From: Escherichia phage vB_Eco_J-01
Reading direction: 5' to 3' (one strand)
Sequence record: PQ438393.1
DNA: 64,000 bases
In this document: positions 48,582 through 48,990 of the stretch, in pieces
How the letters are laid out: the number at the start of each line of letters is the position of its first letter
Position numbering within the stretch: position 1 is the first letter of the stretch
The notes under the pieces: generated by a model
The model's database searches: none
What the model saw: only the letters and a program-made list of their open reading frames with translations
Told to the model about the DNA's origin: nothing
Translations under genes and position numbers: made by a program

Positions 48582-48990
48582 TGTTTATCTCCTTAGTTGA
48601 GTTAGGACTTTATGTTCTCTACTCTACATACAGATGGATCTAAAGTCAATAGATATTTATTATTTAATTAATAATAAAATTAATAAAGAATCTATTGTTA
48701 GTATAGAGTATGTATGTTAGTATTAGAAACATAACATAGTGCTATATGTAGACTACTCAGTCGTTTGTTAGATCATGTATCACAAGATTAGATAACACCC
48801 CCTCGCTGCGCTCGGCGTTTTTCGGGGGTTAGGGTAGCATACTTTTTTGCGTTTGTCAACACCTTTTTAGATTATTTTTAAGTACAACCTAAACCTCCTA
48901 AAAACGATTGTAACGAGTTTTACTGTGAGGTAAGGTGATTGCATATCTTAGAGGCTATTAGCTCGTTACAGAGCTATACAGGAGGGAATA
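48582..48990. promoter_or_regulatory. divergent AT-rich intergenic control region with short direct repeats
   Basis: 409 bp non-coding between divergent gene blocks; direct repeat TGTTAGTAT x2 about 21 bp apart, TAGAT-containing repeats, C5/G5-flanked element around 48795-48830. Confidence 0.4.

Follow-up and report, generated by a model that had tools for sequence, protein, structure and literature searches.

The DNA analyzed here, referred to as the window, is a stretch of 64,000 nucleotides from Escherichia phage vB_Eco_J-01 (record PQ438393.1). The region under study is a 409-bp gap between two divergent genes at 48582-48990, an extent that the original prediction had given exactly, as confirmed against the list of open reading frames (ORFs). 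Near this gap the window shares 98-99% identity with Escherichia phage phi92 and about 55 other Justusliebigvirus records, and by this measure it belongs to a phi92-like phage (Justusliebigvirus). The gap is bounded by an ORF on the minus strand (47688-48581) and one on the plus strand (48991-49359), whose phi92 counterparts are gp107, a putative phosphoribosyl pyrophosphate (PRPP) synthetase read leftward, and gp106A, a hypothetical gene read rightward. By Pfam, gp107 has the phosphoribosyltransferase domains Pribosyltran/Pribosyl_synth, and gp108 (NAMPT) belongs to the NAPRTase family. The strand switch at this point is real, and the sign of the GC skew flips at about 48-49 kb. As set out below, the gap is probably an early-type control region read by the host sigma-70 RNA polymerase, made up of divergent promoters together with a promoter, P_L2, whose transcript would begin with a small, conserved hairpin.

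P_L2 lies at 48831-48859 on the minus strand and faces P_R1 and P_R2, two candidate rightward promoters. It comprises the -35 hexamer TTGACA (48859-48854), a 17-nt spacer, the extension TGC (48839-48837) and the -10 hexamer TACCCT (48836-48831), with a predicted start at G48823 that is preceded by C48824. The elements of a sigma-70 promoter are all present, namely a TTGACA-like -35 and a TAnnnT -10 hexamer 16-18 bp apart, the TG dinucleotide and a pyrimidine-purine start. Readings of the conserved block as a sigma-28, sigma-32 or MotA-box site, or as a NadR box, did not fit as judged by eye.

Across 22 diverse copies of P_L2 the spacer is mostly 17 nt long, with a few of 18 nt, and free in sequence, while TG and TACCCTA are invariant. 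The TG at -15/-14 occurs as TGC, TGA or TGT and is invariant in alignment A4; TTGAC is found at -35 in 19 of the 22 copies and TTTAC in two, the -35 being absent in L191. The C-rich discriminator is strictly invariant. In all copies except the degenerate second copy of contig L176, the start is a purine with a pyrimidine before it, at the seventh or eighth base after TACCCT. Most of the search patterns fixed just TAGGGTA and the hairpin box, and TG was not in the pattern used. Kept although they lie outside most of these patterns, TTGAC, the 17-18-nt spacing and TG count in favor of a P_L2 module.

The transcript from P_L2 would start with GAAAAACGC-CGAGC-GCA-GCGAG-GGGGG. In this 5' leader (48799-48823, minus strand) the box CGAGC-GCA-GCGAG occupies 48814-48802 and is closed by the pairs C48815:G48801 and C48817:G48799. 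In its general form, CGAGC-G-N(N)-A-GCGAG, the box folds into a C:G pair, tandem G.A/A.G pairs, a G:C pair and a C:G pair beneath a GNA or GNNA loop. The loops observed were GAA, GCA, GUA, GGA, GAAA, GAUA and GGGA. The middle loop base alone is free to vary, the other 12 of 13 positions in the box being fixed from genus to genus. Outer stems differ by copy, for instance UUUGC:GUAAG in Citrobacter phage Tr1, UUCUGC:GUAGAA in L141 and UCCUAU:AUAGGA in L191. The original prediction had described a GC element flanked by C5 and G5, and these are indeed present (C5 at 48798-48802, G5 at 48824-48828, local GC up to 60%). By its sequence and conservation, the element is no free-standing GC palindrome but the 5' hairpin predicted for the transcript of a third promoter module, which is conserved, multi-copy and on the minus strand, a point that the prediction had missed.

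The stem-flanking positions, which no search pattern fixed, were used to assess pairing. The covariation score was 0.274, compared with 0.149 ± 0.028 for shuffled alignments (none of 500 reached the observed value) and 0.10-0.155 for slid controls. When these copies were turned into a covariance model, it recovered further copies in contigs outside its building set. Once four copies that had no part in model building were included, the score was 0.373 compared with 0.143 for shuffles, and 79.9% of cells were paired compared with 30-50% in slid alignments. Compensatory changes altered six of the eight pairs on both sides, slid controls scoring less than half of the observed value. The inner pair changes from G:C to C:G in two copies, copy a of L176 has an unrelated outer stem (GUAUG:CAUAC), and another added copy, which has CC:GG where others have GC:GC and two tandem-G.A steps, still keeps the shape. 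Flank cells were paired in 64.8% of cases on the promoter strand and 48.6% on the opposite strand, and the hairpin was assigned to the promoter strand because G:U pairs make that strand fold better. Minimum free energy (MFE) folding with ViennaRNA predicted the hairpin in the window and in most copies, with 0-4 unpaired 5' nucleotides in most of them. The comparative evidence indicates that the predicted P_L2 RNA carries a hairpin whose pairs are kept by compensatory change beyond controls.

The strand preference also bears on whether the GC element could be an intrinsic, possibly two-way, terminator insulating the leftward and rightward units. Its C5...G5 arms could pair, and a terminator scan gave CGCTGCGCTCGGCG followed by TTTTT on the plus strand. 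Nevertheless, this was one site against 0.7 expected, with a stem of five pairs including one G.T, and neither Tr1 nor the L138 group (AAACTTC) keeps the T run. In a plus-strand RNA, U.C/C.U mismatches would replace the tandem G.A pairs, and the flanks pair less often. In addition, no leftward gene lies upstream to be terminated. A terminator is therefore highly improbable.

The hairpin was compared with known RNA elements. At the gathering threshold Rfam found 14 tRNAs in the window and nothing else. The only match at relaxed threshold was GA-cis (RF02987, listed as 'Gene; sRNA'), at 21.3 bits against a gathering cutoff of 34.7 (E = 0.02-0.06), and none of 30 related or pattern-matched loci reached the GA-cis threshold. 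The 3' hairpin of GA-cis, GCCGCcGAgcGaAagcGAgGGGGC, shares the CC-GA-GC-loop-GC-GA-GG design with window positions 48817-48799; its GA/GA internal loop and GNRA-type loop were both recognized, CGCCGAGCGCA-GCGAGGGGG matching the consensus column by column. In contrast, the 5' hairpin of GA-cis aligned only over a 61-nt insertion overlapping the promoter, and its two-hairpin architecture was not found. The same kind of GA hairpin (GCGCC-GAGC-GUA-GCGA-GGUGC) occurs inside a bacterial RNase P RNA on a Patescibacteria contig (L149, 1091-1558). Unrelated GC-rich contigs matched in metagenome-assembled genomes (MAGs; L145, L146 and L167) also contain it, in several cases with long Watson-Crick extensions. 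Because of this recurrence, the GA hairpin as such is a widespread RNA building block and not a family. It shares the core GC-GNA-GC and the 5'-CGAG-3'/5'-CGAG-3' tandem G.A context with stable GCGAAGC/GNA mini-hairpins and with tandem sheared G.A (GGCGAGCC)2 motifs, both of which have served as models in physical chemistry. Literature searches found no description of the promoter-plus-hairpin module.

Stabilizing hairpins of the ompA type stand at the 5' ends of bacterial and phage mRNAs and are normally not conserved in sequence. The module resembles them in having its stem-loop at or near the 5' end, with 0-4 nt unpaired in many copies. Unlike them, it has a fixed box, and the conservation of 12 of 13 positions across genera suggests specific recognition.

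As a unit, the promoter and hairpin match covariance model R1 at 48794-48863 on the minus strand (66.2 bits, E = 1.8e-17). This is the single copy in the window, the next best match scoring 11.6 bits with filters off. Seven distinct phi92-like sequences have an invariant module, the sole difference being a base inserted in one of them. IMG/VR contig 3300030441_000047 has just a 48-nt island in common with the gap, and that island is the GC element. A pattern derived from it matched 35 metagenome and six genome stretches. Roughly half of the metagenome stretches come from syntenic relatives, in the order NAMPT, PRPP synthetase, a 71-aa gene, the element, a gp106A-like gene and a gp105-like gene; the isolates akin to them are Klebsiella phages phi1_175008, KP2025, KP13-26 and FKP3. 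At least one copy of the module was found in 133 phage records, Phapecoctavirus included. By these matches, the predicted module recurs in other Stephanstirmvirinae and in metagenomic relatives. As an exception, two Mydovirus loci with the same gene layout lack it. The anatomy, conservation, copy number, covariation and strand of the module were all observed here.

Some matches were set aside. Pattern CCTCGCTNCGCTCGG was too loose and returned mainly unrelated GC-rich sequence, and the GC-rich MAG matches, one of which is the copy inside RNase P RNA, were mostly pattern-driven. Marine metagenome matches proved to be a different, large palindromic element. In this marine and aquatic palindrome (L130, L134, L154, L156, L157, L159 and L162) the arms are about 45 bp long and consist of CTCGCTTCGCTCG-TAGGGGGGGA-TAGGGTATAG. 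It lies in a divergent gap, ahead of a gene of about 496 aa; its blocks are module-like and its architecture is different.

The close relative alia, whose genome is complete, has three copies, as does each of two IMG/VR genomes. Copy 1 of alia is at the locus matching the gap. Copy 2, at 69.8 kb, precedes a small membrane protein and small hypothetical genes, with helicase and replication genes further on. Copy 3, at 96.9 kb (L182 46934-47000, corresponding to 96934-97000, minus strand), has a weaker -35 hexamer, TTTACT, and is followed by a perfect 7-bp hairpin, UUCCAUG-UUAUA-CAUGGAA; this copy may give an antisense or non-coding RNA. In contigs L176 (1707-1874) and L177/L178 (1257-1431) two tandem copies about 100 nt apart stand upstream of small genes and PRPP synthetase. 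PRPP synthetase is 55% identical in these relatives, and the diverged box of the second copy keeps the fold.

The 149-kb IMG/VR genome 3300030441_000047 (L007, 4699-7627) carries a second copy ahead of an 89-aa membrane protein, a NadR-like protein (AAA_28) and a PnuC nicotinamide-mononucleotide transporter, an arrangement also seen in L137 and L144. NadR/PnuC and PRPP synthetase are both present in the L007 phage, with a module copy ahead of each gene set. This arrangement prompted the idea of a riboswitch or operator tied to nicotinamide adenine dinucleotide (NAD) salvage genes, which was dropped as a general rule since alia copy 2 precedes the genes named above and copy 3 is antisense. The link to NAD genes is suggestive and not general.

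The copy number and position of the hairpin raise the question of whether it is a cis-acting RNA signal of the kind known from lambda nut boxB and HK022 put, which would bind a phage or host factor, or the polymerase itself, and confer terminator resistance along the downstream operons. As with lambda nutL/nutR boxB and HK022 putL/putR, the RNA hairpin is small and conserved, has a purine-rich loop of GNRA-like form and lies just past early promoters in a few copies per genome. Its position after a conserved promoter, its three copies per genome, its small GNA/GNRA-type loop and its strict conservation all suggest protein recognition, and a strong terminator in the same direction is situated downstream (42277-42259). 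The boxB loop, however, is a GAAAA-type pentaloop, while the module has GNA or GNNA loops on a stem with tandem G.A pairs, a stem and loop unlike every known boxB or put. Reading by eye found no CGCTCTTA-like boxA in the minus-strand leader (48823-48582), which has no boxA-like CGCTCTT. An N-like or Q-like gene was not identified, and we know of no antiterminator protein for the module. Moreover, many sigma-70-like promoters lie within the downstream block, so that read-through is not obviously needed, and one copy is antisense to its flanking genes. Such a nut- or put-like function is thus unlikely.

The remaining promoters were recognized by comparison with Citrobacter phage Tr1 and with metagenome contigs related to Klebsiella phage phi1_175008. 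The flanking genes of these relatives are about 62-70% identical and the rest of their intergenic DNA is unalignable. Gap identity is 94-98% among phi92-like phages and about 70% over part of the gap in Tr1. In an alignment of ten syntenic gaps, few conserved islands remain, and each of them reads as a sigma-70 promoter whose hexamers drift at a fixed position and spacing. The divergent promoters that had been proposed for this gap were borne out by this comparison, hexamers, spacing and position being kept where the surrounding DNA is otherwise unalignable.

P_L1, the proximal leftward candidate for gp107, lies at 48621-48649 on the minus strand. It has a -35 hexamer TTGACT (48649-48644), a 17-nt spacer and a -10 hexamer TAGAGT (48626-48621), with a predicted start near 48614. 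The same position has TTGACT-17-TATACT in L138 and L147, TTGATC-17-TACACT in L131 and TTGACC-17-TAGTAT in Tr1. The rightward candidate P_R1 (48695-48723, plus strand) has a -35 hexamer TTGTTA (48695-48700), a 17-nt spacer and a TGT-extended -10 hexamer TAGTAT (48718-48723), with a predicted start near 48730. Its counterparts are TTGTAA-17-TGT-TAGTAT in Tr1, TTGACT-18-TGA-TACATT in L138 and TTGAAG-18-TGA-TACTAT in L131. Both P_L1 and P_R1 therefore keep hexamers and spacing at the aligned position in diverged relatives. P_R2 (TTAGAA-16-TATGTA, 48723-48750, plus strand) is a weak and uncertain candidate; the site is clear in relatives (TTGACA-16-TATACA in L138), degenerate in the window and followed by the conserved block TAGACTACTCAG. 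A further site in relatives, P_R3 (TTGACC-17-TATCAT ahead of the gp106A homologue), could not be matched convincingly in the window. At about +50 of the predicted P_L2 transcript, TGTTAGATC (48766-48774) forms a conserved block whose GATC core is kept in nine of ten syntenic relatives, where AGATCT is found.

The -35 hexamers of P_L1 and P_R1 are separated by 45 bp, most of it a pure A/T run of 35 nt (48653-48687), one of only two runs of at least 25 nt in the 64 kb. UP elements sit in this position, and the run may be read as a shared UP-element-like or bent tract for both promoters. The 'very AT-rich tract' of the original prediction is accounted for by this run; the gap as a whole is just mildly AT-rich, with 33.5% GC compared with about 37% nearby. 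The length of the run varies among isolates, with a 12-nt tandem duplication, TTTATTATTTAA, in inny (L002), L005 and L006. The ALITA GenBank record (L003/L008) is opened inside the run. A genome terminus at this point was considered and is less likely: about 20 nt are missing, other records are continuous, and an assembly break is the likely cause. The other long A/T run of the window, 34 nt at 37096-37129, lies where two leftward genes are separated by a short gap. A leftward promoter, TTGACA-17-TAGACT, follows it directly (37063-37129 with the run), in a UP-like layout as at 48653-48687.

Direct repeats about 21 bp apart had been described as iteron-like. The 9-mer TGTTAGTAT does occur at 48696 and 48715, although the true spacing is 19 bp. 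With two exact copies and one 8-mer variant, 51 bp beyond the second copy, the iteron label was overstated. Taken on its own the TGTTAGTAT repeat is weak, with three copies in the window compared with 1.16 expected and 8 of 100 shuffles reaching three. TGTTAG occurs three times in the gap compared with 0.33 expected, and the TAGAT-type repeats were as described (TAGAT/ATCTA six times compared with 1.4 expected). Copy 1 of TGTTAGTAT overlaps the P_R1 -35 hexamer TTGTTA, and copy 2 is the TGn plus the -10 hexamer TAGTAT. Because of this coincidence with the P_R1 hexamers, and because the counterparts in relatives change sequence and hold position, the supposed iterons are best described as the -35 region and TG-extended -10 of the predicted P_R1.

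These observations leave little room for an iteron-type replication origin or an array of IHF, Fis or DnaA sites, a reading for which the A/T run, the short direct repeats, the TAGAT excess and a strand switch with a change in GC-skew sign could be cited. At least three phased repeats of about 17-22 bp would be required, compared with two exact 9-mers 19 bp apart that are P_R1 parts. Neither a DnaA box (TTWTNCACA) nor an IHF core (WATCAANNNNTTR) occurs in 48582-48990. The neighbors are PRPP synthetase, NAMPT and small hypothetical genes, with no Rep or other initiator gene annotated adjacent. A whole-genome GC-skew check, for which the complete genome of alia was used, found a turning point at every strand switch; skew tracks the coding strand in five of five gene blocks with no separate replication signal. 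This agrees with phage rV5, in which GC-skew changes merely follow transcription direction (PMC3606486). The skew in the gap is explained in the same way, and an origin of this type is extremely improbable.

A transcription-primed origin of the T4 oriF/oriG or T7 type, in which a G-rich RNA would form an R-loop and the A/T run would serve as the unwinding element, must be weighed separately. The purine- and G-rich start GCCGAGCGCAGCGAGGGGG after the promoter, the 35-nt A/T run about 135 bp further on, the several copies per genome as with T4 origins, one of them without a gene to serve, and the fact that no initiator protein is annotated in these phages would all fit. Nevertheless, the other copies have no comparable downstream A/T run, and at every switch the GC skew goes with the coding strand. 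The covariation, G:U pairs included, speaks for a folded RNA and not for a hybrid. We regard this type of origin as quite unlikely.

In the window and in syntenic relatives, P_L2 and P_R1 are head-on about 90-100 bp apart, with overlapping predicted transcripts. The P_L2 RNA might on this account be short and non-coding or antisense, and might pair with the beginning of the P_R1 transcript and control the early rightward operon. The 92-nt overlap (48730-48823), the retention of the head-on layout in all syntenic relatives and the orientation of alia copy 3, which also fires against oncoming genes, are consistent with this. As no terminator was found within 240 nt, however, the RNA should enter gp107, and other copies stand among genes that all run the same way, a gene following at 60-100 nt. 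A dedicated antisense role is very unlikely.

Early regions of other large lytic coliphages offer the closest comparison for the arrangement as a whole. Early promoter clusters of this kind are known from T7 (A1-A3) and T5. Divergent early promoter regions have been predicted in rV5 (PMC3606486). Like the gap, the early regions of rV5, T7 and T5 have clusters of near-consensus sigma-70 promoters, many of them TG-extended, at strand switches and with A/T-rich upstream tracts. P_L2 of the gap differs from these in being a fixed module (TACCCTA, C-rich discriminator and transcribed hairpin) that is found three times per genome and here points head-on to another promoter.

Several results weigh against a sigma-70 control region with a 5' hairpin module. 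A plain consensus scan of the gap returned six promoter-like sites compared with 5.6 in shuffled sequence, which is not above chance, and the case for the promoters is for this reason one of conservation. No transcriptome of a phi92-like phage was found in the literature, so every start site is a predicted one. TACCCT matches the -10 consensus at three of six positions, T-12, A-11 and T-7 being kept, and the invariance of TACCCTA next to promoters that drift hints at an extra constraint outside the model. Fold energies are no better than those of shuffled sequences (z = +1.0 in the window). The outer stem of L191 starts before the predicted transcription start. The box was fixed in the patterns that collected most copies, so its invariance is partly a matter of ascertainment; the covariation set consists of related sequences, and its alignment, A5, was fitted to the model. 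An inverted repeat with covarying arms extends across the predicted start in L138, L004, L179, L180, L150, L185, L176, L192 and L184 and is absent from the window copy. Its arms (AAAC/GTTT, ACCT/AGGT, ACCC/GGGT, GAC/GTC, CAC/GTG, ACTT/AAGT and others) have their 5' member in the discriminator, so the repeat could not be formed by the P_L2 RNA. Finally, copy 3 of alia opposes the plus-strand genes alia_150 and alia_151, and this antisense position is a poor fit to a simple mRNA leader.

With these points taken into account, we infer from the sequence comparisons that P_L1, P_R1 and P_L2 fire. P_L1 and P_R1 would stand back to back with the A/T run as a UP-like upstream tract for both. P_L1 would drive leftward transcription of the genes for PRPP synthetase, NAMPT and tRNAs, and P_R1 rightward transcription of gp106A and the DNA-metabolism block, with the weak P_R2 possibly behind P_R1. 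P_L2, about 100 bp to the right, would fire leftward and head-on to P_R1, giving an RNA from about 48823. The first 25 nt of this RNA would fold into the hairpin C-GA-GC-[GNA loop]-GC-GA-G, with Watson-Crick steps around the tandem G.A pairs, and together with its flanking pairs the hairpin would tie up the RNA 5' end in many copies. Most simply, it may shield the 5' end from decay of the RNase E/RppH type or provide a place for a regulatory protein to dock. P_L2 and P_R1, firing head-on, may each damp the other side.

Reading the wider layout from alia, the leftward unit comprises PRPP synthetase, NAMPT, a tRNA array, terminase and then structural genes, and the rightward unit small genes followed by ligases, nucleases, thymidylate synthase and ribonucleotide reductase. 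A ribosome-binding site for gp106A, AGGAGG (48980-48985), precedes the ATG at 48991-48993 (feature 48980-48993, plus strand). Small ORFs inside the gap (20-51 aa) gave no sign of being genes. In the window, 14 tRNA genes are located at 42394-45029 on the minus strand, with near-consensus leftward TG-extended sigma-70-like promoters among them (for example TTGACA-17-TATAGT at 44926-44898), and the strong leftward terminator at 42277-42259 lies beyond the cluster. The phi92 record (L001, 2275-2425) has a 151-nt 'hypothetical tRNA' annotated inside the NAMPT gene gp108. Rfam found no tRNA at the matching window position, and the annotation is for this reason probably spurious.

At face value, this is the ordinary divergent promoter region of a lytic phage, and what it adds is a conserved promoter-plus-5'-hairpin module. 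The copies of the module provide three testable landmarks for the transcription program of phi92-like and phAPEC8-like phages, which are under development for therapy. The hairpin is compact and strictly conserved and looks built for recognition. A tentative extension, which we consider possible but rather doubtful, is that Stephanstirmvirinae carry an undescribed cis-acting RNA element, a tandem-G.A/GNA mini-hairpin at the transcript 5' end behind a TACCCT-type promoter, and that its three copies mark units for a specific factor and so for nut/put-like antitermination, selective stabilization or timed shut-off. The predicted promoter of the module stands ahead of PRPP synthetase and NAMPT and, in a relative, of NadR-like and PnuC genes. 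Such NAD-salvage genes have been implicated in countering host defenses that deplete NAD, and if the extension is true, the marked units in some relatives would include genes of this counter-defense type. If the hairpin has a partner, it would represent a new phage regulatory system; if it has none, the module would be a portable cassette of strong promoter and mRNA stabilizer for E. coli.

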